From NCBI GenBank assembly GCA_964518305.1, contig CAZFDK010000004.1, positions 42,986 through 106,985 on the forward strand: a DNA stretch of 64,000 nucleotides, in the 5' to 3' direction. The notes beneath the pieces are model-generated. The model was given only the letters and a program-made list of their open reading frames with translations, made no database searches and was not told the DNA's origin. This document shows positions 320 through 60,434 of the stretch, piece by piece. Positions within the stretch are counted from its first letter, which is position 1. The number at the start of each line of letters is the position of its first letter. The position numbers were made by a program, and so were the translations under genes. Source of the DNA: an uncultured Gemmatimonadota bacterium (GTDB lineage: Bacteria; Gemmatimonadota; Gemmatimonadetes; Palauibacterales; Palauibacteraceae).

Positions 320-1816
320 ATGAGCGACCGGACCGCCGAGCAGACCGCCAGCGGATCCCGGGGAGACGGAGCGCCGGGAGTGGAGAAGATCGACGAGTAC
401 CGGTGGCGCGTGCCCCGGCACGGATCCATGAGGGTGGACGGCCTCGTCTACGCAGACGACATCCTCATGCAGGACATCCGGGAAGACGAGGCCCTCGAGC
501 AGGTCTCGAACGTGGCCTGTCTGCCCGGCATCGTGGGCCACTCCATCGCCATGCCCGACATCCACTGGGGATACGGATTCCCCATCGGCGGCGTGGCCGC
601 CTTCGATCCCGCGGAGGGCGGGGTCATCAGCCCGGGCGGGGTGGGCTACGACATCAACTGCGGCGTCCGGCTCCTGCGCTCCGACCTGAAGGAGGAGGAC
701 CTCCGGCCGCGGCTGAGCGACCTGATGGACCAGATCGATCGCGATGTGCCCTCCGGCGTCGGGTCGAGCCACGCCGGGGGCGGCGTGGACCACAGGGACC
801 TGGTGGGCGTGCTCGAGCGGGGTGCCCAGTGGGCCGTGGAGGAGCGCGGCTGGGGCGTTCCGGCCGACCTGGAGCACATCGAGAGCCGGGGTCGCCTGGA
901 CGGGGCCGATCCCGACCGGTTGAGCGCACGCGCCATGGAGCGCGGACGGGATCAGCTCGGAACCGTGGGCTCCGGCAACCACTTCGTCGAGGTCGGCTCC
1001 GTCGAGGAAATCTACGACGACGCGGCCGCCTCGGCGCTCGGCCTCGAGCCCGGCACCGTGACCGTGTTCGTCCACTCCGGCTCCCGGGGTCTCGGCCACC
1101 AGGTGTGCACCGACTACCTGGAGACGATGCTCGACGCCGTCGAGCGGTACGACATCGATCTCCCGGACCGACAGCTGGCCTGCGCGCCACTGGAGTCGCC
1201 GGAGGCGAAGGACTACCTGGGAGCCATGGCCGCGGCGGCCAACTACGCCTTCGTGAACCGGCAGCGGATGGCCCACCTGGTCCGGAAAGCCTTCTCCCAA
1301 GTCCTGGGGAGGTCCTGGGAGGAGCTCGGCCTGGACATGGTCTACGACGTGGCACACAACAACGCCAAGTGGGAGACCCACACCGTGGACGGAGAACAGC
1401 GCCGGCTGTGCGTCCACCGCAAGGGAGCCACCCGGGCGTTTCCGCCCGGCCATCCGGACCTCGGGGAGGCCTTCGAGGACGTGGGGCAGCCGGTGCTGAT
1501 CCCCGGCGACATGGGCCGGTACTCCTACGTGATGGTCGGCACCGACCGCGCGTTCGAAGAGACCTTCGGCTCCAGCTGTCACGGCGCAGGCCGTCGAATG
1601 AGCCGTCGCGAGGCGAAGAAGCGGGCCGGCGGACGGTCGCTCCGGAAGGAGTTCAGGGAGCAGGGCATCGAGGTCCGGGCCGCCTCCACGGGCACCATCG
1701 CCGAGGAGATCCCGGAGGCCTACAAGGACGTCACGAACGTCGTGGACGTGGTCGACGCCGCGGGGATCGGCCGCAAGGTGGCTCGCATGCGACCGATGGG
1801 AGTGCTGAAGGGCTGA
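320..1816 (+). CDS. rtcB: RtcB family RNA ligase
   Basis: Motifs MPDIHWGYGFPIG, GVGYDINCGVR, GSGNHFVE, HSGSRGLGH, YDVAHN, HRKGATRAF, SCHGAGR, EEIPEAYKDV; SD GGAGG upstream. Confidence 0.95.
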   Translation: MSDRTAEQTASGSRGDGAPGVEKIDEYRWRVPRHGSMRVDGLVYADDILMQDIREDEALEQVSNVACLPGIVGHSIAMPDIHWGYGFPIGGVAAFDPAEGGVISPGGVGYDINCGVRLLRSDLKEEDLRPRLSDLMDQIDRDVPSGVGSSHAGGGVDHRDLVGVLERGAQWAVEERGWGVPADLEHIESRGRLDGADPDRLSARAMERGRDQLGTVGSGNHFVEVGSVEEIYDDAAASALGLEPGTVTVFVHSGSRGLGHQVCTDYLETMLDAVERYDIDLPDRQLACAPLESPEAKDYLGAMAAAANYAFVNRQRMAHLVRKAFSQVLGRSWEELGLDMVYDVAHNNAKWETHTVDGEQRRLCVHRKGATRAFPPGHPDLGEAFEDVGQPVLIPGDMGRYSYVMVGTDRAFEETFGSSCHGAGRRMSRREAKKRAGGRSLRKEFREQGIEVRAASTGTIAEEIPEAYKDVTNVVDVVDAAGIGRKVARMRPMGVLKG

Positions 1817-1884
1817 GCACGCCGGACACTGCGACGGACCGATTCGCGCACGCAGCGGGAGAACGTGAAAGGGGAGGAGCCGTC

Positions 1885-2349
1885 ATGAGCCTGGAACTCA
1901 GGTCGGAGGCTTTCGCCGATGGGGACACGATTCCCGTCCGACACACCTGTGACGGCGAGGACATCTCGCCGCCGCTGTCCGTGGGGGGAGTCCCGTCCGA
2001 GGCGGAGAGCCTCGCGCTGATCGTGGACGACCCGGACGCGCCGGCCGGGACCTGGGTCCACTGGGTCCTCTACGGTCTGACGGCCGAGGTCGGAGAACTG
2101 CCGCAGGGCGTTCCGGCCGACGCCGAAGTGTTGGACGGGGCCCTCCAGGGGGAGAACGACTTCGGTGACCTCGGCTGGGGAGGCCCGTGTCCGCCGCCCG
2201 GCGAAGAGCACCGTTACGTGTTCAGGCTGTATGCTCTGGACGGGACGCCGGACATGGAATCCGGTGTCACGAAGGAGGAGCTTCTGGAGGCCGTCGAGCC
2301 GATGGTCGTCGGGGAGGCACGTCTCACCGGGCGGTATCAGCGGTCCTGA
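1885..2349 (+). CDS. YbhB/YbcL family (PEBP, Raf-kinase-inhibitor-like) protein
   Basis: HTCDGEDISPPL, LIVDDPDAP, WVHW, GGPCPP, HRYVFRLYALD; ATG at 1885 with GGAGG SD; last third of track ORF 403..2349. Confidence 0.9.
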   Translation: MSLELRSEAFADGDTIPVRHTCDGEDISPPLSVGGVPSEAESLALIVDDPDAPAGTWVHWVLYGLTAEVGELPQGVPADAEVLDGALQGENDFGDLGWGGPCPPPGEEHRYVFRLYALDGTPDMESGVTKEELLEAVEPMVVGEARLTGRYQRS

Positions 2350-2423
2350 GCGAGGAGTCCGCGGCGGGGGACGCCGGCGGTGAGCCCGCCCGGCCCGGAC
2401 GGGAGGTCGCGGCTCCGGTTCCG

Positions 2424-3522: not shown

Positions 3523-3590
3523 GCCGGGAATCTCACCACACGCCCGTCCGGGCGATCCCGACAGATACCATCCGCCACGCGCGGCATCTT
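3523..3590 (+). promoter_or_regulatory. Phased-box promoter of the baeRF gene
   Basis: Boxes GCCGGG-AATCTC-ACCACA (3523-40) and CGTCCG-GGCGAT-CCCGAC (3545-62); -10-like CATCTT at 3585-90; gaps 44 and 22 nt. Confidence 0.65.
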
Positions 3591-3636
3591 GTTCGTCTTC
3601 GCCGCAGAGAGCGTTACCGACAGCCCGGAGGAGAGA

Positions 3637-4842
3637 GTGATCAGCGCGGACGCGTTCACGACCCGCCACGTCTCGGGATCCGACGTGGAGGAGCTGCTGG
3701 AGGACCGGGAGTCGCCGTGCCTGACGATCTACCTGCCCACGCATCGGCCCAACGACCAGGCGGACGCCGACCGCATCCAGTTCCGGGCGTCGCTGGAGAG
3801 GGCCCGCGAGCTGCTGGCCGAGCGCGACGACGCCGATCGGCTCACCGCGCAGCTGGAGGAAGTGGAACCGCTGGCCCGGGACATCGGCTTCTGGCGGAAC
3901 CAGGCCGACGGTTTCGCTCTCTTCCTGGCGCCGGGCTTCCGGCGGGCCTTCCGCCTCCCCGGCGACGTGCCGGAGCTGACGACGGTGGGGGACGCCTTTC
4001 ACCTCCTTCCCCTGATCGGGAGGGTGCAGGATCCCGACCGGTACTGGGTGCTCGAGCTGGGACAGGAGCGGGTGCGTCTCTGGACGGGAGACGCCGAGGG
4101 TGCGCGCCGTCTCAACCCCGAGGCGCTGCCGGTCGATCTCCGGGACGCCCTGGAAGTGGAGTTCGAGCGCGACGTGATGATGGTGCTGACGCGGAAGGAG
4201 AGGGACGGCAGCCACGGCGACCACGGCCGCGGCGGCGTCATGCCGGTCTTCCACGGTCACGGCGAGCGCGGCCCCGGGCGAGAGGAGAGGCTGCTCAGGC
4301 AGTACTGCCGCCGGCTCGACGACGCGCTGAACGAGGTGCTCGGGGAGAGCCGGGCGCCGGTGATCCTGGCGGCCGTGGGGGAGAACCAGGCCGTGTACCG
4401 CGAGGCGTCCCGGACGGAGCTTCTGACGGAGGAGGGCATCGAGGCGAACGTGCAGCACTGGTCGCCCGAGGAGGTGCACGAGGCAGCGTGGCCCATCGCA
4501 CAGAGCCAGGCGCAGAACACCGTGGACCGGGCGCTGGAGATCTGGGAGCGCGCCGGAGGCGGCGGGAAGGCGGAGTCGGACCTGGCCAACCTGAGCCATC
4601 TGGCCGCCCGCGGACGGATCCGTCTCCTCATGGTGGAGAAAGGGCGACGGGCCTGGGGGCGACGTGATCCGGGGACCGGTGACGTGGAGTTCGCACGGGA
4701 GGGAGGTGAGGACCCGAGCGGGGAGTCCGTGGAGATCCTGGACGCCGTGGCCCGGAGCGTGCTCCGGCACGGGGGAACCGTCCTGCCGCTCTCTCCCGAC
4801 CGGATGCCCGTCGGGAGCGGCGCGGCCGGGGTCCTCTGGTGA
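3637..4842 (+). CDS. Bacterial archaeo-eukaryotic release factor-like (baeRF) protein, candidate Balon/Rv2629-type ribosome hibernation factor
   Basis: PCLTIYLPTH, FWRNQADGFALF, GDAFHLLPL, PVILAAV, C-terminal eL30-like block (ILDAVARSVLRHGGTV); GTG at 3637 with GGAGGAG SD. Confidence 0.8.
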   Translation: MISADAFTTRHVSGSDVEELLEDRESPCLTIYLPTHRPNDQADADRIQFRASLERARELLAERDDADRLTAQLEEVEPLARDIGFWRNQADGFALFLAPGFRRAFRLPGDVPELTTVGDAFHLLPLIGRVQDPDRYWVLELGQERVRLWTGDAEGARRLNPEALPVDLRDALEVEFERDVMMVLTRKERDGSHGDHGRGGVMPVFHGHGERGPGREERLLRQYCRRLDDALNEVLGESRAPVILAAVGENQAVYREASRTELLTEEGIEANVQHWSPEEVHEAAWPIAQSQAQNTVDRALEIWERAGGGGKAESDLANLSHLAARGRIRLLMVEKGRRAWGRRDPGTGDVEFAREGGEDPSGESVEILDAVARSVLRHGGTVLPLSPDRMPVGSGAAGVLW

Positions 4843-4896: not shown

Positions 4897-5451
4897 CTAC
4901 CGTTGCTTTCCGTCCAGGACCGTGAGCACCGAGGCCACGTCCGAGCGGGGTGACTCCAGGACCAGCGTGATCGACACCGCTTCCAGGTTCGTCAGGGCCG
5001 CAGCGGCGGCGGCCACCCGAACCGGCCATACCAGGTCCAGGGCCAGGAGCCCGACCGTGGCCCCGATGACCAGGAAATAGGACGCCTTGGCGGTGAGGGT
5101 GTGGTAGGAGGGCATCTGCCCGAACTTCGTCAGGCTCAGGAGCCACGATGCGGCGTAGGTGGCGGGCACGAGAGCGATCCACGGCCACTCCCCGAGCAGC
5201 ACCTCCCACTCCAGCACGGCCAGACCGCCCAGCAGGAGGCCGTACATCACCATGTCGGCGATGCTGTCCAGCCGGGCCCCGAGCTCGCTTCGCTGATCCA
5301 GGAGCACCGCGAGCTTCCCGTCGAGCCAGTCGGTGGCCTCCAGGGCCAGGAACAGGTACAGGAACAGGTCCGACCGCCCGGCGAGGGCCAGGACGGCCAG
5401 GGCCGGCGCGATCGCCAGGCGGACGCTGGTGATGGCGTTCGGGAGGTTCAC
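4897..5451 (-). CDS. CDP-alcohol phosphatidyltransferase family protein
   Basis: NLPNAITSVR start and signature DWLDGKLA...GARLDSIAD; hydrophobic. Confidence 0.9.
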   Translation of the reverse strand: MNLPNAITSVRLAIAPALAVLALAGRSDLFLYLFLALEATDWLDGKLAVLLDQRSELGARLDSIADMVMYGLLLGGLAVLEWEVLLGEWPWIALVPATYAASWLLSLTKFGQMPSYHTLTAKASYFLVIGATVGLLALDLVWPVRVAAAAAALTNLEAVSITLVLESPRSDVASVLTVLDGKQR

Positions 5452-5668
5452 TCCGACCTCCGGGGGACGGCCAGCACCGGGCCGTGCGCGGAGCGGTCCG
5501 GATCGGCGCCCCGCACGTGCGACCGAACCGCCCGGTGCGACGGCTCCAGGGGGAGCCGGACGACGGCGCTTCGGAAGTCGGGCATCGGGCGGATCATCTC
5601 GTCGGGGCCGGGGGCCCTCCGGGCCGGCCGTTCGCAGTCGCAGGGTTCAAAGAATGTCTCCGTGACGG

Positions 5669-5686
5669 AGTGGGGCTCTTCCCGGC
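5669..5686. promoter_or_regulatory. Isolated palindromic box in the divergent CDP-alcohol transferase / cdsA region
   Basis: AGTGGG-GCTCTT-CCCGGC matches the 6-6-6 box, but no phased partner or -10 was found. Confidence 0.35.
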
Positions 5687-5752
5687 GCGAGCGGCGAACC
5701 GAAAGATGACCTGCCTCCGGGACTGCGACCATCCGCCGATCGGGCACCCGGC

Positions 5753-6760
5753 GTGAACCCCGTGCACGAGCTGTCCCAGCTCCTGGGTCTCGCGGAGGGC
5801 ACGACCCTGGTTCTGCTGGCGGTCGGGGGGGTGCTCCTCGCCGGACTCGTCAAGCGCGGGATCGCGGTCGTCCGGGACGAAGCTGCAACGGACGACATCC
5901 GTCGCTGGCGGAGCGTCTGTACCTGGACGGCCCTCTTCCTGGTGCTGGTCGCTGTGGTCAGCCTGGGCCGAGCCGCCGTCGTTCTCTGCGCGGGGGTCGT
6001 CTCGCTGCTCGCCCTGCATGAGGGACTGCGGCTCGCCGGGACGTCCGGACTGATCGGGATCGCTGCGCCCGGGAGCGCGACACTGTACCTGTGGGCGTGG
6101 GCCGACTGGACGGGTCTCTTCCTGCGGGCCGTCCCTTTCCTGGCCGTCGGGTGGCTCGTGGTGGAGCTGGCGGAGCACGTACGGACGGAGGACGGGATCA
6201 GTGACCTCGTGTCCACTGGGCGGGCGCTCCTCCTGACCGTCGTCGGCCCCTCCTTCGTGGTGGCCGTGGCTTCGCTCCCGGCGCCGAAGGAGCTTCCAGA
6301 CGCCGACATGGGGTGGCTGGTCCTCCTGGTGCTCCTCACCGCGGTGAATGATTCCGCCCAGGCCTGGTGGGGCCGCAGCTTCGGGCGACGCCAGTTGGCA
6401 CCACGGATTTCACCGGCGAAGACATGGCTCGGCCTGCTCGGCGGCGTCGCGACGACGACCGCGGCGTCCGTCGCGGTGGCCCCGATGCTGACGGCCTGGG
6501 GGCGTCAGCCGCCGCCCGCGGCGCCGGGACTGCTGCCGCCGCTGGCCTGGCCCGTGATGGTGGGCCTGCTGATCGGACTGGCCGGAACTGCCGGCGACCT
6601 CTCGGCCTCGGTCCTGAAACGCCGGGCGGGCGTTGACGACAGCGGGACGGCGCTCCCCGGCCACGGCGGGTGGATCGATCGGTTCGACAGCCTGGCCGTC
6701 TCGGCCCCCGTCTACTTCTGGTTCGCCTGGAGCCTCTGGTATGCTGGTCACTGGTACTGA
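5753..6760 (+). CDS. cdsA: Phosphatidate cytidylyltransferase family
   Basis: NDSAQAWWGR, ISPAKTW, GDLSASVLKR, DSGTALPGHGGWIDRFDSL. Confidence 0.9.
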   Translation: MNPVHELSQLLGLAEGTTLVLLAVGGVLLAGLVKRGIAVVRDEAATDDIRRWRSVCTWTALFLVLVAVVSLGRAAVVLCAGVVSLLALHEGLRLAGTSGLIGIAAPGSATLYLWAWADWTGLFLRAVPFLAVGWLVVELAEHVRTEDGISDLVSTGRALLLTVVGPSFVVAVASLPAPKELPDADMGWLVLLVLLTAVNDSAQAWWGRSFGRRQLAPRISPAKTWLGLLGGVATTTAASVAVAPMLTAWGRQPPPAAPGLLPPLAWPVMVGLLIGLAGTAGDLSASVLKRRAGVDDSGTALPGHGGWIDRFDSLAVSAPVYFWFAWSLWYAGHWY

Positions 6761-10511: not shown

Positions 10512-11282
10512 CTACAGCTCGCGCCGGACGACGAGGACGGGCCTGTCGGTGCCGTCGGCGAGGCGGCGTGAAAAGTCGCCGAAGATCGTCTGGCGCACCG
10601 ATGGCTCGGTCTCGCCTATGACGACCACGTCGTGCTCCCGTGCGGCCTCCTCCACGACGCCTTCCGGGTCGTCGTCGACGGCGAGGCGCATCTCGATCCG
10701 GTCGCCGTCGACCCCCTCCTCCCGCACCAGCTCTCGCCTGAGCAGCTCCATCTCCCTGCGCGGTTCTTCCCTGTCTGCCTCTTCTTCCTCCTCGGCGTCC
10801 TCTTTCTCCGACGCGACGTAGAGGAGAGTCGCCCGGTACGTCCCGTTCTGCATCAGGCCGGCAAGAACGTTGATCACCCGCGTGGCCATGGGTCCGGGGC
10901 GCACGGCCGCGAGGATTCGCTCCAGGCTGTAGACGGGCTTCGCGAGGAGGATGGCGTGGCACCCCTGCTCCACGGCCGTCCGCTCGACGGCCTCGAGCCT
11001 GTCGGGCACGAACACCAGCTCCGACCCGACCTCGACCCCGGCCTCGGCGAAGGCAGCTGCCACTTCGTCCAGCGACGTCGAGGTCTCGGACTCGACTTGC
11101 TCGCGAGCCTGCTCGGGTGCTGTCTGCTCCGGCACGAGGTACGTGCCGAGGAGACAGACCTTCATCGGACGGTGCAGCTCGATCAGGAGCGGCGAGATCT
11201 GCTCCGGGTCGGGCACCTCCACCGAGACGAGCACCCTGAGCTTCTCGTCGTTTCCGGCGCTCTCCTCGTCGCCGATAATCAC
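10512..11282 (-). CDS. Universal stress protein-like (two USP-like halves), coupled to the APC transporter
   Basis: C-terminal DVVVIGE...IFGDFSRRLADGTDRPVLVVR USP signature; GTGA overlap with transporter stop. Confidence 0.75.
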   Translation of the reverse strand: MIIGDEESAGNDEKLRVLVSVEVPDPEQISPLLIELHRPMKVCLLGTYLVPEQTAPEQAREQVESETSTSLDEVAAAFAEAGVEVGSELVFVPDRLEAVERTAVEQGCHAILLAKPVYSLERILAAVRPGPMATRVINVLAGLMQNGTYRATLLYVASEKEDAEEEEEADREEPRREMELLRRELVREEGVDGDRIEMRLAVDDDPEGVVEEAAREHDVVVIGETEPSVRQTIFGDFSRRLADGTDRPVLVVRREL

Positions 11283-12718: not shown

Positions 12719-12761
12719 GGCCGCAGGGGCGGTGAGGCCGCCGCCACGGCGCTGGCCGGGC

Positions 12762-12853
12762 GCGGTGACCTTCCCCACATATCCGGGGACGCCTCCCCCA
12801 CTCGCGGCGAGGAGACGTCCCCGACATCGCGACGTCCCGCGTTCGTCCACCCT
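12762..12853 (+). promoter_or_regulatory. Phased-box promoter of the dodecin-PRT(-otsA) unit
   Basis: Box ends CCCACA (12774-79), CCCACT (12797-802), CCCGAC (12820-25), each 23 bp apart; CACCCT at 12848-53; gaps 45 and 22 nt. Confidence 0.65.
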
Positions 12854-12934: not shown

Positions 12935-13147
12935 ATGACCAGCATCGCAAAGTGCATCGAGATCATAAGCGAATCGGAGGACAGCTTCGACGACGCCGTC
13001 GACAACGCCGTCGCGGAGGCGTCGAAGACGGTGAGCAACATCAAGTCGCTCTGGGTCGAGAATATGAGCGTGACGGTCGAGGACGAGGAGATCCAGAAGT
13101 ACCGGGTGAACGCCAAGGTCACGTTCCTGGTCGAGGGCCACGAGTGA
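12935..13147 (+). CDS. Dodecin family flavin-binding protein
   Basis: 70 aa; AKCIEIISESEDSFDDAVDNAVAEASKT...YRVNAKVTF. Confidence 0.9.
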   Translation: MTSIAKCIEIISESEDSFDDAVDNAVAEASKTVSNIKSLWVENMSVTVEDEEIQKYRVNAKVTFLVEGHE

Positions 13148-13857: not shown

Positions 13858-13964
13858 CAGCGGTGGGAGGCGTGATCCCGTGACCGTATCCCGACATGTT
13901 ATACGGTGGGCGGGACGTGACTGCTCGCCGACTCGCTGTTCCGCGATCGAACATCCCGCGTGAA

Positions 13965-15492: not shown

Positions 15493-15561
15493 GTCCGAAG
15501 ATCTCCCACAGGCCACGGGGAGGGGTCCCCCACGGATCGTCAACGCCCGGAAGGGTATTCT
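15493..15561 (+). promoter_or_regulatory. Phased-box promoter of the small membrane-anchored protein
   Basis: GTCCGA-AGATCT-CCCACA (15493-510) and box ending CCCACG (15534); TATTCT at 15556-61; gaps 45 and 21 nt. Confidence 0.65.
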
Positions 15562-45503: not shown

Positions 45504-45506
45504 TCC

Positions 45507-47794: not shown

Positions 47795-47804
47795 AGGGAC
47801 CGCC

Positions 47805-50119: not shown

Positions 50120-50366
50120 GCTCACCTCGTATCGATGGCTCTCTCGGCCCGGCGTCGGAGATTCGGCCCGGGAGCGGGCGCGCACCTGGCGTCCGGGACG
50201 GCGATGGCGCTCGGGGCCATCCCGTGCAAACACGCTGCCGGGGTCCCGGGTAGATTGAGCCGGAGACGTGGGCGAGCAGCGAGAGTCGGTTCGGCCGGCC
50301 GGGAGTCCCCCGCCGGCGATTCGTCCCGACCGGGGACGGCGCAACAGACAACGGCTGGAGATCACC

Positions 50367-51230
50367 ATGACGAGCGACGCGAGCACGAGGCGGACGGAAT
50401 CCGAGTCGGAGACGGTGCTACGTCCCGGGGAGCTGGACGCCGTGATCTTCGACCTGGACGGCGTCCTGACCGATACGGCGGAGGCGCACTTCCGCGCCTG
50501 GAAGGAGACCTTCGACCGGTTCCTGGAGGAGCGTGCCGAGGAGCGCGGTACACCCGTCGAGCCCTTCACCCGCAACGACTACCGTCGTCACGTCGACGGG
50601 AAGCCCCGGTACGAGGGTGCGCGGGACTTTCTCCGGGCGCGGGGCATCGAGCTGCCGTTCGGGGACCCCGGGGACTCGCCCGGCGAGGAATCGGTGTGCG
50701 CCCTGGGGAACCGGAAGAACGAGCGCTATCGGAGCCGGCTCGAGGAGGGGGAGCTCGAGCCGTTCGCGAGCTCCGTGGATCTCGTCCGTCGGATTCGATC
50801 GGCGGGGGCGCCCACGGCGGTGGTGACGTCGAGCCGCAACGGGCGGCAGGTGCTGGACGCCTCCGGGATCGCGGAGCTGTTCGACGCGGTGGTGGACGGC
50901 ACGGACCTGGCCGACGATCCGTCGCTGACGGGAAAGCCGGCTCCGGACCTCTTCCTCGAGGCCGCCCGCCGGGTCGACGCGGAGCCCGGACGGTCCGTCG
51001 TCGTCGAGGACTCCTCGGCGGGAGTCGAGGCCGGCCGGCGCGGCGACTTCGGGCTCGTCATCGGAGTCGCTCGCGACCGGGGGGGCGAGGACCTGGAGCG
51101 GGCGGGCGCGGATCTCGTGGTCAGGGACCTCGGCGGTGTTCCCGTGTCCTCGGGTCACGGCCGGCAGGCGAGCCGCGACCGGAGGGACGAGGAGCAAGAA
51201 GCTCCCGACGGGGCCGGCAGGGACCGGTGA
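50367..51230 (+). CDS. HAD family hydrolase, beta-phosphoglucomutase-like
   Basis: FDLDGVLTDT, DGKPRYEG, TSSRN, GKPAPD, VVEDS..GV.AG. Confidence 0.88.
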   Translation: MTSDASTRRTESESETVLRPGELDAVIFDLDGVLTDTAEAHFRAWKETFDRFLEERAEERGTPVEPFTRNDYRRHVDGKPRYEGARDFLRARGIELPFGDPGDSPGEESVCALGNRKNERYRSRLEEGELEPFASSVDLVRRIRSAGAPTAVVTSSRNGRQVLDASGIAELFDAVVDGTDLADDPSLTGKPAPDLFLEAARRVDAEPGRSVVVEDSSAGVEAGRRGDFGLVIGVARDRGGEDLERAGADLVVRDLGGVPVSSGHGRQASRDRRDEEQEAPDGAGRDR

Positions 51231-52060
51231 CGTCTCCGGGGAAGACCGGGGCCGCCATTCGGCGCCTGCCGTCGGCCCTGGAGAGGCGGGACGAGATAGC
51301 GGAGCGGATCGGAGATCGGACGCCGGCGCTCTTCCTGGACTACGACGGCACGCTCACGCCCATCGTCGAGGATCCCGCCGAGGCGGCGATTCCCGCGGAG
51401 ACGCGCGACGTCCTCCGCACCATGGCAGAGGGGACGCCGGTTGCCGTGATCAGCGGCCGCGACCTGGACGAGGTGCGTCGGATGGTCGGGGTCGGGGGTC
51501 TCTGGTACGCCGGGAGCCACGGCTTCGACCTGGCGGGCCCGCAGGGCGACCGTGAGCAGAGAGCCACCGACGCAGTGCCGGCGCTGGACGAGGCCGAAGA
51601 GGAGCTCCGCCGAACCGTCGAGGCGGAATTCCCGGGCGCCCGGGTGGAGCGAAAGCGCTTCGCCCTGGCCGTCCACTACCGGACCATGGATCCGCAGCCG
51701 GTGCCGGACCTGCGCCGTCGGGTCGAACAGGTCGCCGCCGACCATCCGGAGCTGCGGGTCTCCGGCGGAAAGAAGATCTTCGAGGTTCGACCCGACGAGG
51801 ACTGGGACAAGGGGCGCGCCGTCCTGTGGCTCTGGGACGTCCTGGATCTCCGCCCTGCCTCCCATCATGCGATCTACATCGGAGACGACGTCACGGACGA
51901 GGACGTGTTTCGGGTGCTGGGCGACCGGCTGCCGGGAACCGGGATCGTCGTCCGGGGCGAGGACGACGGCCGCGAGTCTCGCGCGGACTATTCACTGGCC
52001 GACCCGGGGGAAGTTCGCGCGTTCCTCGATCTCATCTCGACGGGGGGAGCAGAACGATGA
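51227..52060 (+). CDS. otsB: Trehalose-6-phosphate phosphatase
   Basis: FLDYDGTLTPI, VISGR, YAGSHG, GKKIFEVRP, WDKG, YIGDDVTDED; last part of track ORF 48293..52060. Confidence 0.92.
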   Translation: MTSPGKTGAAIRRLPSALERRDEIAERIGDRTPALFLDYDGTLTPIVEDPAEAAIPAETRDVLRTMAEGTPVAVISGRDLDEVRRMVGVGGLWYAGSHGFDLAGPQGDREQRATDAVPALDEAEEELRRTVEAEFPGARVERKRFALAVHYRTMDPQPVPDLRRRVEQVAADHPELRVSGGKKIFEVRPDEDWDKGRAVLWLWDVLDLRPASHHAIYIGDDVTDEDVFRVLGDRLPGTGIVVRGEDDGRESRADYSLADPGEVRAFLDLISTGGAER

Positions 52061-54567
52061 CGGGTGTCGGGGCGTCCGGCTCCACCCGGGCCGAGAGCCT
52101 GGTGGCCGACGACCTCTTCGCGTCCCGGAAGGTGCGGGAGAACCTGCGCGCGGCCACGGACGGCTGGTGCCTGGTCTACACGGGCTTCGATCCGGCGGCC
52201 GAGGGACTGCGGGAGGCCCTCTGCACCCTGGGCAACGGCCACTACTGCACGCGGGGCGCCGCTCCCGAGGCGCAGGCGGACGGGGTCCATTACCCGGGCA
52301 CCTACCGGGCCGGCTGCTACGACCGCCTGGCCACGACGATCGCAGGCGAGACGGTCACCAACGAGAGCCTGGTGAATCTCCCGAACTGGCTGCCCCTGGA
52401 CCTCAGGGTCCAGGACGGCCCGTGGCTCGACCTGGAGCGGCTGGAGATCCTCGACTACCGCCAGGAGCTGGATCTCAGGACGGGCGTCCTGACCCGGCGC
52501 CTTCGGTACCGGGACGACAGGGGACGCGAGACGGCAGTTCGCCAGCGACGCTTCGTCAGCATGGACAGGAGCCATCGGGCCGGGCTGGAGACCGAGGTCA
52601 CCGCCGAGAACTGGTCCGGCGAGCTGGAGGTCCGGACCGGCCTGGACGCCCGGGTGGAGAACGCCGGCGTCGCGCGGTACCGGGAGCTGGAGGGCAGGCA
52701 CCTCGTGCCGGCGGGCACGGACCTGCCGGACGAGGAGAGCATGCTCCTCCGGGCCCGAACCGTCCAGTCCCGGATCGGCGTGGCCGAGAGTGCCCGCTTC
52801 CGGATCCGGCGGGACGGCGAGCGCCTGGCGCCGGACCGTGACCGGGAGCGCCAGCCGGGCTACGTGGCCGACCGCCTCTCGATTCCGATCTCGGAGGGAC
52901 AGTCGGCCACGCTCGAGAAGATGGTGACGCTGTTCACGGGCCGGGACCCCACGGTCGCCGAGGCCGGCGAGGCCGCGCGCCGGGAGCTGGAGCGCACCGC
53001 GAGCTTCGGCGAGGAGCTGGAGCGCCACCGACTGGCCTGGCGGCACCTCTGGCGACGCTTCGAGATCGGGACGGAGCTCGAGGGGCGGGGCGAGGACTGG
53101 ACCAACTCGGTCCTCCGTCTTCACCTCTTCCATCTGCTCCAGACCGCATCGGAGCACACCAGGGACCTGGACACCGGCGTGCCTGCCCGGGGATGGCACG
53201 GCGAGGCGTACCGGGGACACATCTTCTGGGACGAGCTCTTCATCCTTCCGTTGCTCGACTTCCGGGCGCCGCAGGTGAGCCGGGAGCTCCTCCGCTACCG
53301 ATACCGCCGGCTTCCCGAAGCGCGCCGATCGGCCCGGGAGGCCGGCTACGCCGGGGCGATGTTCCCGTGGCAGAGCGGCAGCGACGGACGCGAGGAGAGC
53401 CAGGAGTTCCACCTGAACCCGGAGTCCGGCCGGTGGATCCCGGACGAGACCCACCTGCAGCGGCACATCAACACCGCCATCCCGTTCAACGTCTGGCGGC
53501 ACTACCGGGTCAGCGGTGACCTGGACTTTCTCGACGCCTTCGGTGCCGAGATCATGGCGGAGACGGCCCGCTTCTGGGCCAGCATCGCGGAGTACAGCGA
53601 GAAGCGGGGCCGCTACGAGATCCGCGGCGTGGTCGGTCCCGACGAGTACCACACCTCCTACCCGGACGCCGACGAGCCCGGGCTGGACAACAACGCCTAC
53701 ACGAACGTCATGGCCGCCTGGACGCTCTCACGGGCGGCAGAGGCCCTCGAGGAGCTTCCGGACTACCGTGCGGAGGAGCTGCGGGAGCGGCTGGAGATCG
53801 ACGATGCCGAGCTGGAGCTGTGGGACGAGGTTAGCCGCAGGATGTTCGTGCCGTTCCACGGCGAGGGGAACAGGATCATCAGCCAGTTCGAGCGCTACGA
53901 GGAGCTCGAGGAGTTCGACTGGGAGGAATACCGCGAGCGCTACGACGACATCCAGAGGCTGGACCGCATCCTGGAGGCGGAGGGCGATACCCCGAATCGA
54001 TACAGGGCATCGAAGCAGGCCGACGTCCTGATGCTCTTCTACCTCTTCTCGGCCGAGCAGCTGACGGAGCTCTTCGCACGGCTCGGCTACGACTTCGATC
54101 CGGAGTGGATCCCGCGGAACGTCGAGTACTACATGGAGCGAACCTCCCACGGCTCCACGCTCAGCGGGGTCGTCCACTCGTGGGTCCTCTCCCGGACGGA
54201 CCGGGAGCGCTCCTGGCGCTTCTTCTGCGAGAGTCTGGTCAGCGACGTGGGCGACATCCAGGGTGGGACGACGCCGGAGGGGATCCACCTGGGGGCCATG
54301 GCCGGGACCGTGGACCTGCTGCAGCGGTGCTACTCCGGGCTGGAGCTCCGCGGCGAGCGGCTGTACTTCGATCCTCAGCTGCCGAAGGAGCTGGAAGAGA
54401 TCTCCTTCCGGATTCGGTTCCGGGGACACTGGCTCGACGTCACGGCCACCTCCGGACGCCTTCGGGTCGAGGCCGGGCCGGGAACGGCACCGCCTGTGAC
54501 CGTGGGGGTGGCGGACGGCAGCGAGACCGAGATCGGACCGGACGGGTGGCACGAGTTCGAGCTGTGA
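52057..54567 (+). CDS. Glycoside hydrolase family 65 (trehalose/maltose phosphorylase-like)
   Basis: LCTLGNG, GWHGEAYRGHIFWDE, MFPWQSG, GPDEYH, DNNAYTN, KQADVLML, HGSTLS, GIHLGAMAG. Confidence 0.93.
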   Translation: MTGVGASGSTRAESLVADDLFASRKVRENLRAATDGWCLVYTGFDPAAEGLREALCTLGNGHYCTRGAAPEAQADGVHYPGTYRAGCYDRLATTIAGETVTNESLVNLPNWLPLDLRVQDGPWLDLERLEILDYRQELDLRTGVLTRRLRYRDDRGRETAVRQRRFVSMDRSHRAGLETEVTAENWSGELEVRTGLDARVENAGVARYRELEGRHLVPAGTDLPDEESMLLRARTVQSRIGVAESARFRIRRDGERLAPDRDRERQPGYVADRLSIPISEGQSATLEKMVTLFTGRDPTVAEAGEAARRELERTASFGEELERHRLAWRHLWRRFEIGTELEGRGEDWTNSVLRLHLFHLLQTASEHTRDLDTGVPARGWHGEAYRGHIFWDELFILPLLDFRAPQVSRELLRYRYRRLPEARRSAREAGYAGAMFPWQSGSDGREESQEFHLNPESGRWIPDETHLQRHINTAIPFNVWRHYRVSGDLDFLDAFGAEIMAETARFWASIAEYSEKRGRYEIRGVVGPDEYHTSYPDADEPGLDNNAYTNVMAAWTLSRAAEALEELPDYRAEELRERLEIDDAELELWDEVSRRMFVPFHGEGNRIISQFERYEELEEFDWEEYRERYDDIQRLDRILEAEGDTPNRYRASKQADVLMLFYLFSAEQLTELFARLGYDFDPEWIPRNVEYYMERTSHGSTLSGVVHSWVLSRTDRERSWRFFCESLVSDVGDIQGGTTPEGIHLGAMAGTVDLLQRCYSGLELRGERLYFDPQLPKELEEISFRIRFRGHWLDVTATSGRLRVEAGPGTAPPVTVGVADGSETEIGPDGWHEFEL

Positions 54568-54580
54568 CGGTCCGGTCAGC

Positions 54581-57355
54581 GTGACAGGGGCGGCGGCCGG
54601 CCGCGGCGGAGCGGACGATCGGGCCACATGGCACGCTCTGACGGCGGCGGAGGTCGCCGATCGCCTGGACACCGACCCGGACGCGGGACTCCGGGCCGAC
54701 GAAGCGAGCCGACGGAGGCGGGAGCAGGGGCCCAACCGGATACGAAGCGGCGAGGAGATCTCGCCGCTGGCGATCTTCGCCGATCAGTTTCGTGACTTCC
54801 TGATCTACCTCCTGGTCCTGGCGGCCGTCCTCTCCGTGGCGGTGGGCTTCATGCCCGACGCCGACCCGAACTGGATCGACGCCGGCCTCATCCTGGCCAT
54901 CCTCCTGGCCAACGGCGTGTTCGGGTTCGTACAGGACTACCGGGCCGAGCGGGCCATCCGCGCCCTCCAGGAGCTGGCCACCCCCGACGCGGACGTGGTC
55001 CGCGGCGGCCAGCGCCGGACGGTGGACGCCGAGGCCCTGGTGGTGGGCGACGTCGTGGTTGTGGAGCAGGGCGATGTCGTGCCGGCCGACGTGCGTCTGG
55101 TGGAGGCGGCCAGCATGGAGACGCAGGAGGCCGCGCTCACCGGCGAGAGCAGCTCCGTGGCCAAGGGGCTCGAGGCGGTGGACGAGGGGACGCCCCTGGC
55201 CGAGCGGCGCGGCATGGCCTTCATGAACACGAGCGTCGTGCGCGGAAAGGGTCGGGGCGTGGTGGTGGCCACGGGCATGGACACGGAGATGGGAAGCATC
55301 GCCGCCCGAATCCAGGAGGCGGACCAGGATCAGACCCCGTTCCAGCAGGAGGTGGACGTTCTGGGCCGGCGCATCGGATATGGCGTCCTCGGCCTGATCG
55401 TGCTCGTGGCGGGACTCCAGCTCACCTTCACCGAGGCGGACGCCATCGCGGTGCTCCTCGTGGCCGTGACGCTCGCCGTGGCGGCGGTTCCGGAGGGATT
55501 GCCGGCGGTGGTGACGCTGACCCTGGCACTGGGGTCCCGCCGGATGCTCGACCGCAACGCCCTCGTCCGGCGGCTGCCGGTGGTCGAGAGCCTGGGATCG
55601 GTGGACGTGATCGTCACCGACAAGACGGGGACGATCACCGAGAATCAGATGACGGTGCGGCGGGTCCGGGCCGGCGGTGAGACGTGGGAGGTCACGGGAT
55701 CCGGCACGGATCCGGAGGGGCAGTTCCGCCCGGTCGACGGTGACGACGGCTCGCCGGACCCTGCCGTGCTCGAGCCCATTCTCCGCTGCGGGGCCGAGTG
55801 CAACGACTCGATGCCGGCCCCGGACGATCAGGAGGAGGACTACCTCGGGGATCCGACGGAAGTGGCGCTCCGGGTGTCGGCGGCGAAGGCGGGGATCGAG
55901 GGAGGATCGGACCGGCTGCGCGAGGTCCCGTTCTCCTCGGAGCGGAAGCGGATGACCGTGGTCACCGACGGAGAGCCGCCGGTGGCGTGGATGAAGGGAG
56001 CGCCCGAGGTGGTCCTCGAGCGCTGCGACCGGATCCTGGAAGACGGTGAGGAGACGGATCTCTCCGAGGACCGGCGGGCGGAGATACTGGAGCGGAACCG
56101 TGAGCTCGCCGGGGAGGCCTACCGGGTGCTCGGCTTCGCGCGCCGCGAGCTGGAGGGGGACTCCCAGGGGCCGTCCGACGACGAGCTCGAATCCGGCCTC
56201 ACGTTTCTCGGCCTGCAGGCCATGATCGATCCTCCGCGGCCGGAAGTCGCCGAGGCGGTAAAGGATTGCCGGAAGGCCGGGATCCGGGTGGTCATGGCCA
56301 CCGGCGATAATCTGGAGACCGGGAAGGCGGTGGGAGAGGAGGTAGGCTTCGACCCCGAGGGGGCGCTCACCGGCGCCGACGTGGAGGCGATGGAGGACGA
56401 GGAGCTGCGGGCGAAGGCCGAGTCGGTCGAGGTGTTCGCCCGGGTCTCGCCCGAGCACAAGGTGCGGCTGCTGGAGGCCCTGCAGAACAGGGGACACCGG
56501 GTGGCCATGACTGGAGACGGCGTCAACGACGCCCCCGCCGTCCGGAACGCCGACGTGGGAATCTCAATGGGGATCAGGGGCACCGATGTGACCAGGGAGG
56601 CGTCGGACATGGTGCTCCGGGATGACAACTTCGCCACGATCAGGGACGCCGTGGCCGAAGGGCGGACGATCTTCGACAACATCCGGAAGTTCGTCAACTT
56701 CCTGCTCTCGGCGAACGCCGGCGAGGTCCTGGCCGTCTTCTTTGGCGTCCTGGTCGGCGGCGCGCTCTTCCCGGAGCGCTTCGCCGCCCGCTCCGAGGCG
56801 CTGGTCCTGACGCCGGTCATGCTGCTGTGGATCAACCTGGTCACGGACGGGCTCCCCGCGCTGGCGCTCGGCGTGGATCCACGGACCCCGGGGATCATGG
56901 ATCGTCCTCCACGTCCGTCGGAGGAGGGCGTCATCGGAGGCCGTGTCCTGGCCTCCGTGCTCGCGCTGGGCGCCGCGATCACGGTCGTGGGACTCGTCCT
57001 CTTCTTCCGGGGGCTCGAGGCCACCGGGGACCTGGTCCTGGCTCAGACTCTCCTCTTCACCTTCCTGGTGACGATCGAGATGGTGATCATACAGGTCATT
57101 CGGGGGCGCTACGGCCTCGGACCGCTCTCCAACCGGTGGCTGGTGGCAGCGGTGACATCGTCGATTGGGCTCCAGCTGCTGGTGCTCTACTCTCCGCTGC
57201 AGGAGTTCTTCCGCGTGCGAGCGCTCTCGATCGGACAGTGGGGATGGATCGGGCTGGCCGCGGCGGCGTTCACGCTCCTCGCCGTGGCAGCCTCGCGCAC
57301 GCTGTCCCGCTTCCTTCCGGAACGGACCGCGGCTCGGCAGCGGAGGGGCGGCTGA
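54581..57355 (+). CDS. P-type ATPase, type IIA (Ca2+-like)
   Basis: TGES, VPEGLP, DKTGT, KGAPE, TGD, TGDGVNDAPA, NAGE, WINLVTDGLPALAL. Confidence 0.95.
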   Translation: MTGAAAGRGGADDRATWHALTAAEVADRLDTDPDAGLRADEASRRRREQGPNRIRSGEEISPLAIFADQFRDFLIYLLVLAAVLSVAVGFMPDADPNWIDAGLILAILLANGVFGFVQDYRAERAIRALQELATPDADVVRGGQRRTVDAEALVVGDVVVVEQGDVVPADVRLVEAASMETQEAALTGESSSVAKGLEAVDEGTPLAERRGMAFMNTSVVRGKGRGVVVATGMDTEMGSIAARIQEADQDQTPFQQEVDVLGRRIGYGVLGLIVLVAGLQLTFTEADAIAVLLVAVTLAVAAVPEGLPAVVTLTLALGSRRMLDRNALVRRLPVVESLGSVDVIVTDKTGTITENQMTVRRVRAGGETWEVTGSGTDPEGQFRPVDGDDGSPDPAVLEPILRCGAECNDSMPAPDDQEEDYLGDPTEVALRVSAAKAGIEGGSDRLREVPFSSERKRMTVVTDGEPPVAWMKGAPEVVLERCDRILEDGEETDLSEDRRAEILERNRELAGEAYRVLGFARRELEGDSQGPSDDELESGLTFLGLQAMIDPPRPEVAEAVKDCRKAGIRVVMATGDNLETGKAVGEEVGFDPEGALTGADVEAMEDEELRAKAESVEVFARVSPEHKVRLLEALQNRGHRVAMTGDGVNDAPAVRNADVGISMGIRGTDVTREASDMVLRDDNFATIRDAVAEGRTIFDNIRKFVNFLLSANAGEVLAVFFGVLVGGALFPERFAARSEALVLTPVMLLWINLVTDGLPALALGVDPRTPGIMDRPPRPSEEGVIGGRVLASVLALGAAITVVGLVLFFRGLEATGDLVLAQTLLFTFLVTIEMVIIQVIRGRYGLGPLSNRWLVAAVTSSIGLQLLVLYSPLQEFFRVRALSIGQWGWIGLAAAAFTLLAVAASRTLSRFLPERTAARQRRGG

Positions 57356-58997: not shown

Positions 58998-59001
58998 CGC
59001 G

Positions 59002-59796
59002 CTAACCCAGCGCCACGTCGAGGTAGAGCATGACCATGATCCCCAGCATGGTGCCGAAGGTCGCCACGCGGGCATGTCCCTTCCGGTGCGTCTCGGGGAT
59101 GATCTCGTTGCTGATCACGTACAGCATGGCCCCCGCTGCGAACCCCATGGCATACGGGAGGACAGGCTCCGCGAACTCCACGGCCCACGCCCCGCCCACG
59201 GCCAGGGGAATCTCCACGAGTCCGGCCCGGATTCCCACGAACGCCGCGTAGAAGGCGGCGCCGAAGCCCACGGTCAGGGCGGAGGCCGCGACGGCCAGCC
59301 CCTCGGGGATGTTCTGGATGCCGATGGCCAGCATGAGTGGAAGGGCGTTTGACAGGTCTCCCGAACCGAAGCCCACGCCCACGGCCAGGCCCTCCGGGGC
59401 GTTGTGGAGGGTGATGGCGAAGATGAAGAGCCACACGGCCCGGAGACGCTCGGTGTCCGCACCCTCGCGGCCCTTCACCATGTGCAGGTGGGGGACGTAA
59501 CGGTCGCCCAGGTAGAGGAAGAGGGCCCCCAGCGACATGCCGACCAGGACGCTCACGATGCCGCCCTCCTCGACGCCGGGAATGATGAGGCTCGTGTAGG
59601 AGGCAGTGAGCATGACGCCGGCGCCGAACCCGAGCGCCGTGTCCAGGAACCGCTCCGAGGGTTCGCGCCAGACCACGATGGCCAGGGCGCCGATCGTGTT
59701 CAACAGGGTGATCACCAGTCCGCCCACCAGGCCCTGGACCACCGGGTTCGAGCCCGATAGACGGAGGAACAGCTCCTGGAACCAGCCGGGGTCCAT
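59002..59796 (-). CDS. ZIP family metal transporter (GufA type)
   Basis: GFGAGVML, ITLHNAPEG, IQNIPEG, FAAGAMLYV...EIIPE. Confidence 0.92.
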   Translation of the reverse strand: MDPGWFQELFLRLSGSNPVVQGLVGGLVITLLNTIGALAIVVWREPSERFLDTALGFGAGVMLTASYTSLIIPGVEEGGIVSVLVGMSLGALFLYLGDRYVPHLHMVKGREGADTERLRAVWLFIFAITLHNAPEGLAVGVGFGSGDLSNALPLMLAIGIQNIPEGLAVAASALTVGFGAAFYAAFVGIRAGLVEIPLAVGGAWAVEFAEPVLPYAMGFAAGAMLYVISNEIIPETHRKGHARVATFGTMLGIMVMLYLDVALG

Positions 59797-59867
59797 CGCT
59801 CACGGCTCCCGTTCCACGGGGGATCCCGGCGGGCGGAGCCCCCGTCCCGCCGGTCCCGGTGGACACG

Positions 59868-60434
59868 TCATCCCGCCAGTCCGTACTGCGACACCGACTT
59901 CATCAGGTCCGTGGTCGTCGCCACGCCGACGAGGCGGTCGTCGTCGATTACCAGCAGACGATGGATGCCGGCGCGCAGCATGTACTCGGCCGCGTCCCGA
60001 ACGGGGGTATCGGGCGACATGGCGCAGAGGGTTCGTGTCATGACGTCGGATGCCGTGTAGCGATCCATGGGCCCGCCGGTCCGGTCGGCCTCGGCCTCGC
60101 CCCCGATGCTTTCGCCCCGGAGCCTGTCCTGCTCCTCCCACAGGCGGACGAAGTACGCCGCCGGTGGCTCCTCGCCCTCCTCCCACAGCCCGGTTCCGGG
60201 CTGGTCCTCGAATCCGAGCTGACTCCCGGGCTCCAGCGGCGGACCGCCGCCCTCGGTGGAGGAGTCGAACTGGAGGAGGTCCGTGGCGGAGACCACTCCC
60301 ACCACCTCCTCGCCGGACACCACGGGTACCCCCGATATGTGCTCCGAGCTCAACAGCTCGGCGACCTCCCGCAGGGTGGCGTCCGGCGACACCGTGATCA
60401 CGTTCACGGTCATGATGTCGTGCAGGGTGACCAT
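59868..60434 (-). CDS. CBS domain pair protein (Rv2626c-like)
   Basis: IMT..VITV.PD, ISGVPVV, VGVVS.TD, IHRLLVID, VGV.T.TD; AGGAG SD. Confidence 0.88.
   Translation of the reverse strand: MVTLHDIMTVNVITVSPDATLREVAELLSSEHISGVPVVSGEEVVGVVSATDLLQFDSSTEGGGPPLEPGSQLGFEDQPGTGLWEEGEEPPAAYFVRLWEEQDRLRGESIGGEAEADRTGGPMDRYTASDVMTRTLCAMSPDTPVRDAAEYMLRAGIHRLLVIDDDRLVGVATTTDLMKSVSQYGLAG

Follow-up and report, generated by a model that had tools for sequence, protein, structure and literature searches.

A cluster of about 100 kb related to mycobacterial dormancy genes and carrying a phased promoter box in an uncultured Gemmatimonadota bacterium

About a third of the DosR regulon of Mycobacterium tuberculosis consists of proteins of unknown function, which are hard to study in the pathogen. 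Its cis-element, the Dev box, is a 20-bp palindrome with the core GGGACN4GTCCC, and DevR promoters carry phased arrays of such sites, the proximal one lying over the −35 region. A contiguous DevR-like regulon has already been published for Streptomyces coelicolor, under the control of OsdK/OsdR (PMC5069765), and homologues of the ribosome hibernation factor Balon adjoin the genes of Hsp20, RaiA, RtcB, OsmC and hypoxia factors in many phyla (PMC10901736). We found no paper that joins the DosR regulon with Gemmatimonadetes. Here we analyse a stretch of 64,000 nucleotides (the window), positions 42986–106985 of contig C4 of a 3.09-Mb metagenome-assembled genome (MAG; 177 contigs, about 90% complete), in which an earlier note had seen a DosR-regulon-like dormancy toolkit gathered into one island of a probably non-mycobacterial host.

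That interpretation is partly supported. The window belongs to a real, conserved cluster in a distant phylum, whose genes are specific relatives of mycobacterial dormancy genes and have a promoter element in common. The host is indeed not a mycobacterium but a member of Gemmatimonadota: the closest named relatives of its RtcB come from MAGs of Ca. Palauibacterales (91% identity) and of Gemmatimonadota (77%). Plain coordinates below refer to the window, and those preceded by a contig label refer to that contig.

Kinship with mycobacterial hspX and RtcB loci

Genes were called from third-position GC content, and about 60 products were scanned against Pfam and NCBIfam. Nearly all of the families listed in the earlier note were confirmed within 320–60434, namely RtcB, baeRF, universal stress proteins (USPs), Hsp20, a phosphoribosyltransferase (PRT), a dienelactone-hydrolase-like protein (DLH), an erythromycin-esterase family protein (EreA-like), a class I methyltransferase, an M50 protease with a CBS pair (M50-CBS), a separate CBS pair, a class II ribonucleotide reductase (RNR), PncB, CapA, GH65, a P-type ATPase, N-ATPase, PolX, LigA and an archaeal-type S-adenosylmethionine (SAM) synthetase. 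The term PRT covered two unlike genes in that list, a plain PRT (13144–13857) and a paralogue of phosphoribosyl pyrophosphate (PRPP) synthase (18986–20005). The aminoglycoside phosphotransferase (APH)-like protein at 20025–21047 was matched by no Pfam or NCBIfam model; its thousands of homologues are named "aminoglycoside phosphotransferase family enzyme" by JGI.

As a yardstick we used 80 mycobacterial hspX loci (±10 kb; query identity at most 81%, M. tuberculosis not among them) and, in addition, M. ostraviense; the Rv numbers attached to window genes are equivalences that we take from established knowledge, the sequences actually compared being those of other mycobacteria. Comparison of the window proteins with the 80 neighbourhoods by tblastn, together with the M. 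ostraviense locus, showed that they are 35–59% identical to genes adjoining hspX or RtcB. The EreA-like protein of Rv2030c type (36994–38442, + strand; PF05139, E = 3e-108) has counterparts at 57 hspX loci with 38–39% identity, and the PRT (+ strand, PF00156), which matches the PRT domain of Rv2030c/Rv0571c-type proteins, at 55 of the 80 with 48% identity. They are followed by M50-CBS of Rv2625c type (27743–28903, +) at 33 loci (37–39%) and by the APH-like kinase-fold protein (− strand, 340 aa), which resembles the N-terminal part of Rv2004c-type proteins, at 15 loci (37–40%). The DLH, of the Rv0571c C-terminal type (21053–21808, −; PF01738), is 51–56% identical to mycobacterial genes (51% to those linked to hspX), and CapA/PGA_cap, of Rv0574c type (33984–35141, −; PF09587), is 46–47% identical (46% to hspX-linked genes). 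For GH65 phosphorylase (51826–54567, +) and the P-type cation ATPase (54581–57355, +), identity to hspX-linked genes is 51% and 36%, respectively. The B12-dependent, NrdZ-like class II RNR (38458–40266, +; TIGR02504 NrdJ_Z, 678 bits against a cut-off of 400) shares 52% identity with hspX-linked mycobacterial RNRs but only 45% with its paralogue on contig C8.

A segment of about 15 kb at the RtcB gene of M. ostraviense holds homologues of CapA (47%), PncB (59%), PolX (40%), DUF2267 (35%), PRT (51%), DLH (54%), RtcB (52–53%) and RNR (46%). PolX, which had been counted among the parts added to the DosR-type set, is present in a mycobacterial cluster as well and therefore does not set this host apart.

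Conversely, 83 of the 2666 MAG proteins have a homologue in the hspX neighbourhoods, and 17 of the 83 are encoded among the 102 genes of C4 (Fisher odds ratio 7.6, p = 5e-9). The proposed gathering of DosR-regulon-like content into one contiguous cluster is thus above chance. Judged by these sequence comparisons, the island genes are specific homologues of hspX- and RtcB-locus genes, beyond shared membership of broad families, and the proposed relation to mycobacterial hypoxia and dormancy loci holds at this level.

Many island genes are second copies, which argues against the plain housekeeping outcome that had been named as a refutation. LigA and PolX have a second adjacent pair at C1:105182–109035, 59% identical to the island pair; the PRPP synthase has another copy on C50 (37% identity), nicotinate phosphoribosyltransferase (NAPRTase) on C15, Balon a paralogue on C37 and M50-CBS one on C1. 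A housekeeping F-type ATP synthase set lies on C68, apart from the N-ATPase, and the archaeal-type SAM synthetase is an extra enzyme because a normal bacterial MetK is encoded on C60.

PRT and EreA-like form a single open frame in 53 of 56 mycobacterial loci, and PRT and DLH do so in M. ostraviense; in the MAG the three genes are separate and spread over three operons with the promoter box described below. A database protein of 735 aa (P0216, an RtcB homologue) fuses RtcB (PF01139) to a PRT domain (PF00156), a further link between these two families. Dev cores with one mismatch near the mycobacterial homologues were too unspecific to be of use (0.14 per kb against 0.10 per kb in the MAG); some mycobacterial APH-like homologues have a Dev-core box 32–42 nt upstream, and only such close cases are suggestive.

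A phased box at the promoters of the cluster

The promoter box was found by de novo k-mer counting in the intergenic DNA of C4, where TTTCCCCA and CTCCCSACA are enriched 12- to 90-fold. Genome-wide, exact same-strand TCCCSAC cores show spacing peaks at 23–24 bp (12 pairs) and at 47 bp; 15 of the 19 high-scoring tandem sites are intergenic, in a genome of which 12% is intergenic, and about 10 of the 19 lie on C4. The logo of 40 sites reads tYTCCCSACR and has no conserved second half. A −10-like element, A..TT, stands at a fixed distance (about 23 nt) from the proximal box, with A at +30 in 20 of 26 promoters and T at +34 in 17 of 26, so that the box core falls at about −41 to −35, where class II activators have their sites. 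The Dev box itself was tried as the cis-element and rejected: GGGACN4GTCCC gave 12 matches with at most one mismatch against 11.8 expected from shuffled sequences.

Seven promoters were aligned with those of a genome of the same genus (G001), whose coding DNA is 81–88% identical. Of the box columns, 121 of 126 were identical, compared with 748 of 1151 other intergenic columns (p = 6e-16), and the −10-like elements were conserved too. Purifying selection acts on the boxes.

At least 13 transcription units in the window are boxed, and about seven more upstream of it, including ackA-ppsA(-RtcB). The RtcB RNA ligase (320–1816, +; PF01139, E = 3.9e-176) stands downstream of ackA-ppsA, the boxed promoter of which lies upstream of the window; ppsA itself (C4:40864–43238, reaching into the window at 2–253) reads as two frames because an assembly gap, a stretch of N, interrupts it. 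Two phased boxes at 3532 and 3555 (3532–3563, +) precede the gene of the Balon-like baeRF ribosome hibernation factor (3589–4842, +; PF18845 baeRF_family3, E = 4e-32), which matches PDB entry 8rd8_B over its full length (residues 34–400, E = 4e-12) and whose translation contains neither GGQ nor NIKS, in agreement with the published definition of Balon (PMC10901736). Three phased boxes at 12771, 12794 and 12818 (12771–12826, +) serve the genes of dodecin (12935–13147, +; PF07311), PRT and the GT20 trehalose-6-phosphate synthase OtsA (13896–15476, +; PF00982, E = 9e-141), and two more (15502–15534, +) stand upstream of a 75-aa open reading frame (ORF; 15614–15841). Two phased boxes at 17877–17907 (+) head the run of Hsp20/alpha-crystallin (17970–18482, +; PF00011), an H2TH fragment gene (18537–18989) and the second ribose-phosphate diphosphokinase, or PRPP synthase (+ strand; TIGR01251, 261 bits), which it precedes. 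On the other strand, two phased boxes at 23515–23547 (−) belong to the DUF2267-YbaK-DLH-APH operon, with a YbaK-type deacylase and a DUF2267-THUMP protein as lead genes (21828–23394, −).

Several arrays are divergent. Boxes at 25948 and 25972 (−) and at 26033 (+), within 25947–26041, face a CitMHS/TrkA_C transporter gene (23709–25703, −; Pfam) and a pair encoding a DUF72 protein and the class I methyltransferase (26204–27585, +, the latter at 26932–27585; Pfam). Five boxes lie within 41561–41667, two (41561, 41585) on the − strand towards a Na/Pi-cotransporter-like gene (40345–41535, −; Pfam) and three (41613, 41636, 41659) on the + strand towards a 75-aa ORF and the nine-gene N-ATPase operon (41803–48737, +, the operon proper at 42046–48737; Pfam). 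Boxes at 60577 (−), 60587 and 60610 (+), spanning 60577–60618, lie between the gene of the CBS pair (59868–60527, −; Rv2626c-type at family level, Pfam) and those of a short-chain dehydrogenase (SDR) and a ZIP transporter (60749–62266, +; Pfam). The PolX-EreA-RNR operon has three phased boxes (12.6, 7.5 and 12.0 bits; 35148–35204, +), followed by TAAGGT at 35227–35232 and the ATG at 35241, to which the start of the PolX gene (35241–36997, +; with a PHP domain) was revised. A single strong box at 62274–62282 (+) stands before a 108-aa ORF and a Tll0287-like gene.

It should be noted that the PolX operon looks leaderless, the −10-like TAAGGT standing just 8 nt before its ATG, and that the CapA gene starts divergently within the same boxed region. 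In DNA of such high GC content, taking the longest ORF probably places starts too far upstream; divergent starts abut or overlap at 5448–5753 and 33984–35241. At two sites, window 60577–60596 and C4:108812–108830 (window-equivalent 65827–65845), opposite-strand boxes overlap at a 10-nt offset. One of these sites is a perfect 17-bp palindrome, GTGGGGAGCCTCCCCAC, a geometry unlike that of the phased direct repeats, and the C4:108812–108830 site precedes the genes of an Rrf2 regulator and a NosZ-like protein. Elsewhere in the genome, the boxed targets include multihaem cytochromes, an outer-membrane channel, an acyl-CoA dehydrogenase and a NarL-type regulator.

Candidate kinase and regulators, and competing explanations

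Seven GerE-type genes are present in the genome, and three of them adjoin box arrays. The first encodes a NarL-type regulator (C4:10630–11286) directly upstream of a three-box USP promoter; the second, its 73% identical paralogue (C6:4980–5681), has a tandem array 107–131 nt upstream and lies in a nos-gene neighbourhood; the third encodes a membrane-anchored LuxR-type protein on C8. The C4 and C6 regulators have the recognition helix ISPKTVDTYRSR in common. Both consist of REC and GerE domains and are generic members of the NarL family by PDB ranking, in which VraR (4e-42) and NarL (2e-33) precede DevR (1.6e-30), with FixJ also among the matches.

A PAS-HisKA_3 kinase of 352 aa (C4:19685–20743) is divergent from a boxed receiver gene. 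Its best PDB matches are the haem-PAS domains of FixL (2cmn, 1y28, 1dp6; E = 8e-15 to 1e-14); the proximal haem-ligand His is kept ("ertHrahresy" against "rsrHdsyisry" in FixL), as is the Arg-Arg motif ("geRRdgstfp" against "gkRRdgttfp"). The catalytic core is of the DesK/DevS type, and the ATP-binding domain matches DevS and DosT. The kinase is thus a candidate FixL-like haem-PAS sensor, for which haem binding is predicted. Orthologues of the regulator stand directly beside PAS/HisKA_3 kinases in at least five other Gemmatimonadota genomes, and in four genera they lie 10–17 kb from the PRT-DLH-EreA core. This context supports, without proving, an O2- or NO-responsive two-component switch.

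The reading that we favour, and that we hold to be rather probable, is that of a stress/dormancy cluster of about 100 kb that functions as the DosRST regulon does, though through other regulatory parts. The FixL-like kinase would phosphorylate the NarL/FixJ-family regulator, represented by two paralogues, when O2 falls or NO or CO appears; the phosphorylated regulator would bind the phased boxes and activate transcription; and the programme would park and protect ribosomes, hold ion gradients and nucleotide and NAD pools, repair DNA and RNA and accumulate trehalose for survival without growth. We infer control by the FixL-like kinase and NarL-type regulators, with an O2-related trigger, from the context described above.

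Several observations weigh against this reading. About half of the transcription units of the window have no detectable box. Nothing above background was found at the run of M50-CBS and, on the same strand, a second LigA, an alpha/beta hydrolase, a DAGK/YegS-like kinase and the archaeal-type SAM synthetase (PF01941; 28834–33962, +); at the gene of nicotinate phosphoribosyltransferase, PncB (48746–50575, −; NF006696, equivalog level); at the HAD-GH65-ATPase run (50694–57355, +); at either USP gene of the window (a Usp at 10512–11282, −, downstream of an amino-acid permease at 11279–12850, and a tandem-domain Usp at 16770–17795, +, the start of which is probably near 16891, where no clear box was seen); at a nitroreductase gene (15889–16635, −); or at the GH15, glucokinase and lipid genes. 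The tandem-box pattern is enriched across the family, but in one related genus (G015) it is an interspersed repeat, and in another genome (G021) it occurs only partly at orthologous genes, so the family-wide tally is not proof of a conserved regulon. In G015, a near-identical 30-nt sequence, TCCCCACACGCGTGTAGGGTTTTTCCCGAC, occurs 11 times on different contigs (loci L081–L089) with flanks that mostly have no homologues in the MAG, and it looks like a box-containing interspersed repeat rather than a promoter set. In a related island of another family (G172), the promoters upstream of PRT, USP, DUF2267 and ackA carry another recurring motif (ATGAAGAT, with GTGAA repeats) and not TCCCSAC, and the wiring therefore seems to differ between lineages. 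A direct-repeat box without a second half is unusual for NarL-family dimers, and no boxes were found upstream of the regulator orthologues in 30 genomes, where most orthologues lie directly behind a kinase gene. Finally, trehalose, K+/Na+ handling, cardiolipin synthase and DNA repair fit osmotic or desiccation stress as well as hypoxia. The single conserved programme proposed in the earlier note is plausible because its genes share one cis-element, whereas the box is present on only about half of the window units and regulatory parts of the DosR type were not found.

The last points but one bear on the explanation that comes closest to the one we favour, according to which the boxes are real but are bound by another transcription factor, for example one of a different family that recognises direct repeats and whose gene lies elsewhere. 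Such a protein would suit a direct repeat that recurs about every two helical turns and has no palindromic half, and also the lack of boxes upstream of the regulator orthologues in other genomes. On the other hand, three of the seven GerE-family genes adjoin arrays, one of them with a textbook tandem array at 107–131 nt, and no other regulator gene was seen beside several arrays. We regard a different binder as possible though doubtful.

Slightly less likely still is a regulon that serves survival in general, in stationary phase or under osmotic stress or desiccation, and that is set off by something other than oxygen; the FixL-like kinase would then act in some other circuit such as respiration or denitrification. 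The appeal of this reading lies in the genes of trehalose synthesis and turnover (OtsA, GH65, GH15 and beta-phosphoglucomutase), the N-ATPase, Kup, P-type ATPases, cardiolipin synthase and LigA/PolX, in the general occurrence of Balon-type genes in mixed stress operons (PMC10901736), and in the kinase gene itself, which has no strong box. Against it speak the place of the kinase inside the cluster, divergent from the boxed receiver gene, the adjacency of kinase and regulator kept in relatives, the boxed multihaem cytochromes and the boxed C6 regulator in its nos-gene neighbourhood.

It is very improbable that we are dealing with a true orthologue of the DosR/DosS/DosT system whose binding site has diverged. 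The regulator is of the NarL family with DevR among its PDB matches, the kinase has an ATP-binding domain matching DevS and DosT, and phased arrays with the proximal site over −35 resemble DevR promoters; yet VraR and NarL outscore DevR, the sensor domain is PAS and not GAF, and the Dev box is not enriched. No HisKA_3 kinase with tandem GAF domains was found: this genome, about 90% complete so that the absence is not absolute, encodes only two HisKA_3 proteins, the second being a 358-aa membrane kinase too short for two GAF domains. As far as the earlier note implied DosR-like regulatory parts, the chance frequency of the Dev box, the missing tandem-GAF kinase and the better PDB scores of VraR and NarL than of DevR count against them.

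Chance co-location or ordinary housekeeping gene order, with which the uniform GC and the lack of a tRNA or integrase would agree, can practically be dismissed in view of the enrichment on C4, the conserved common cis-element, the fact that most of the "housekeeping" genes are second copies, and the related clusters in other Gemmatimonadota, Proteobacteria and Mycobacterium.

Extent, relatives and comparison with described systems

The cluster runs about 33 kb further upstream on C4 and occupies about 100 kb in all (approximately C4:9,400–110,000). Upstream of the window lie two tandem-USP genes, the NarL-type response regulator, an S30AE-CSD hibernation factor, Kup, an orphan receiver, the PAS-HisKA_3 kinase, OsmC, another PRT, a 2885-aa protein, cardiolipin synthase, a second P-type ATPase, ackA and ppsA; downstream follow another CBS pair, ArsR, ZIP, Rrf2 and the start of the NosZ-like gene. 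The hibernation factor (C4:14528–15088), with a boxed promoter nearby, is an S30AE domain fused to a cold-shock domain. The 2885-aa protein (C4:22250–30907) is encoded right after a boxed tandem-USP gene and by eye resembles large proteins of the glucan synthase/phosphorylase type. A mini-cluster at C31:7390–11619 encodes a CBS protein, Hsp20 and a protein of 535 aa in which an APH-like domain is joined to a P-loop (GGLPATGKST); this is the full Rv2004c-type architecture, of which the 340-aa version in the window lacks the P-loop part.

The GC content of the window is 70% throughout (0.68–0.72), similar to that of the genome. Searches of the window gave no tRNA and no Rfam match, and as regards marks of a mobile island, there was no integrase or transposase Pfam match, no tRNA and no deviant GC. 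The segment C4:400–46,000 is syntenic with G001.

In content, the cluster combines ribosome hibernation and repair (Balon-like, S30AE-CSD, RtcB), chaperones, USPs, trehalose metabolism and ion homeostasis (N-ATPase, P-type ATPases, Kup, ZIP) with poorly understood enzymes (PRT, DLH, EreA-like, APH-like, CapA, M50-CBS) and spare core enzymes. The N-ATPase genes follow the order ATP-synt_ab (beta), DE_N (epsilon), ATPase_gene1, AtpR, a, c, b, ab (alpha) and gamma, that is, the atpD-C-gene1(Q)-R-B-E-F-A-G order of N-ATPases, with AtpR present and delta absent. The earlier note's combination of HAD, OtsB and GH65 stands for HAD and GH65 but not for OtsB: NCBIfam places the HAD protein (50694–51230) in the beta-phosphoglucomutase family, which rules it out as OtsB, and the trehalose gene present is otsA instead. 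The nitroreductase was likewise considered as an Acg-type protein and ruled out, being of the SagB type (NCBIfam). The tandem Usp has 3loq as its sole PDB match at the cut-off of E = 1e-8. PncB has a domain-less N-terminal extension of 160 residues, so that its real start probably lies further downstream.

Related clusters occur in other Gemmatimonadota, in Proteobacteria and in Mycobacterium. In other Gemmatimonadota, PRT, DLH and EreA are adjacent genes in that order; the EreA-like gene is patchy in the phylum (34 of 151 genomes). Two genomes of another family carry a rearranged cluster, in which the best MAG homologue lies on C4 for 16 of 24 genes (G172) and for 9 of 15 (G155). In Thiohalomonas denitrificans, the APH-like, PRPP synthase, DLH, PRT and USP genes are grouped, and in a betaproteobacterial MAG so are those of AAA_33, S30AE, APH-like, PRPP synthase, isochorismatase, NAPRTase and USP.

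We tentatively suggest, with rather less confidence than for the cluster in this host, that an old module (PRT, DLH, EreA-like, APH-like, PRPP synthase, NAPRTase, RtcB, Balon/HPF and class II RNR, with or without PolX) may move between phyla as a unit and may have been wired independently to different O2 or stress sensors. In Actinomycetota the partner would be DosRST, in this host a FixL-like PAS kinase with phased boxes, and the sister family would use another motif. Through the module, non-growing cells would keep a minimal, separately regulated "second set" of functions for nucleotides, NAD, ATP, DNA repair and the maintenance of ribosomes, and the M. tuberculosis "dormancy" proteins Rv0571c, Rv2030c, Rv2004c, Rv0574c and Rv2625c, with related genes, would belong to this module. 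The dormancy genes seem to predate DosR itself and to be more portable.

The same proteins, at 35–59% identity and with the same neighbours in a distant phylum, in Proteobacteria and in environmental mycobacteria, give guilt-by-association clues to the uncharacterised part of the DosR regulon. The PRT-EreA, PRT-DLH and RtcB-PRT fusions, together with the neighbouring genes, tie these proteins to the salvage of nucleotides and NAD and to the upkeep of ribosomes and RNA. For the abundant, little-studied soil and marine Gemmatimonadota, the analysis gives a predicted regulon for which the box is defined, the promoter geometry is fixed and an oxygen sensor is proposed, and the extra ATP synthase, RNR, ligase, PolX, SAM synthetase and PRPP synthase form a testable picture of what a non-growing cell needs.

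Among described systems, FixL/FixJ of rhizobia resembles the present one in the haem-PAS alignment with its proximal His and in a partner regulator with a LuxR/GerE-type helix-turn-helix, FixJ being among the PDB matches. It differs in that the kinase core here is HisKA_3 (DesK/DevS-type) and in that the targets here are a dormancy and stress toolkit, whereas those of the rhizobial pair are fixK/nif/fix. The Balon operons (PMC10901736) are matched by Balon, an S30AE factor, RtcB, Hsp20 and OsmC on one contig here; they are small operons, however, and no 100-kb co-regulated cluster or cis-element was described for them. The OsdK/OsdR regulon (PMC5069765) is the precedent outside mycobacteria: a DevR-like stress regulon, rich in USPs and lying largely in one chromosomal region around its regulator. 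OsdR is an orthologue of DevR with a Dev-like palindrome, AGGGCCGATCGGCCCT, in Actinomycetota, with USP and nitrate-reductase content, whereas phylum, motif and sensor are all different here.

The DosR regulon of M. tuberculosis remains the closest match in content and logic. It has in common with the present cluster RtcB, Balon (Rv2629-type), USPs, Hsp20, PRT/DLH/EreA-like (Rv0571c- and Rv2030c-type), APH-like (Rv2004c-type), the methyltransferase, M50-CBS, the CBS pair, class II RNR, PncB, CapA, HAD with GH65, the P-type ATPase (ctpF-type) and the S30AE factor. Two-component control by a haem-type sensor and a NarL-family regulator would be a further likeness, and so are phased activator sites with the proximal one over the −35 region. 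In contrast to the DosR regulon, which is scattered over about nine loci, the genes lie here in one cluster, without an Acg-type nitroreductase, tgs1, narK2/narX or fdxA and, as the comparison of gene content confirms for three of the proposed added parts, with N-ATPase, LigA and the archaeal-type SAM synthetase in addition. Three defining regulatory features of the DosR system fail here or, for the regulator, are in doubt: the 20-bp palindromic Dev box is replaced by 9–10-bp direct repeats at 23–24 bp, the tandem-GAF sensors DosS/DosT by a candidate FixL-like PAS sensor, and the regulator is not closest to DevR in the PDB ranking.

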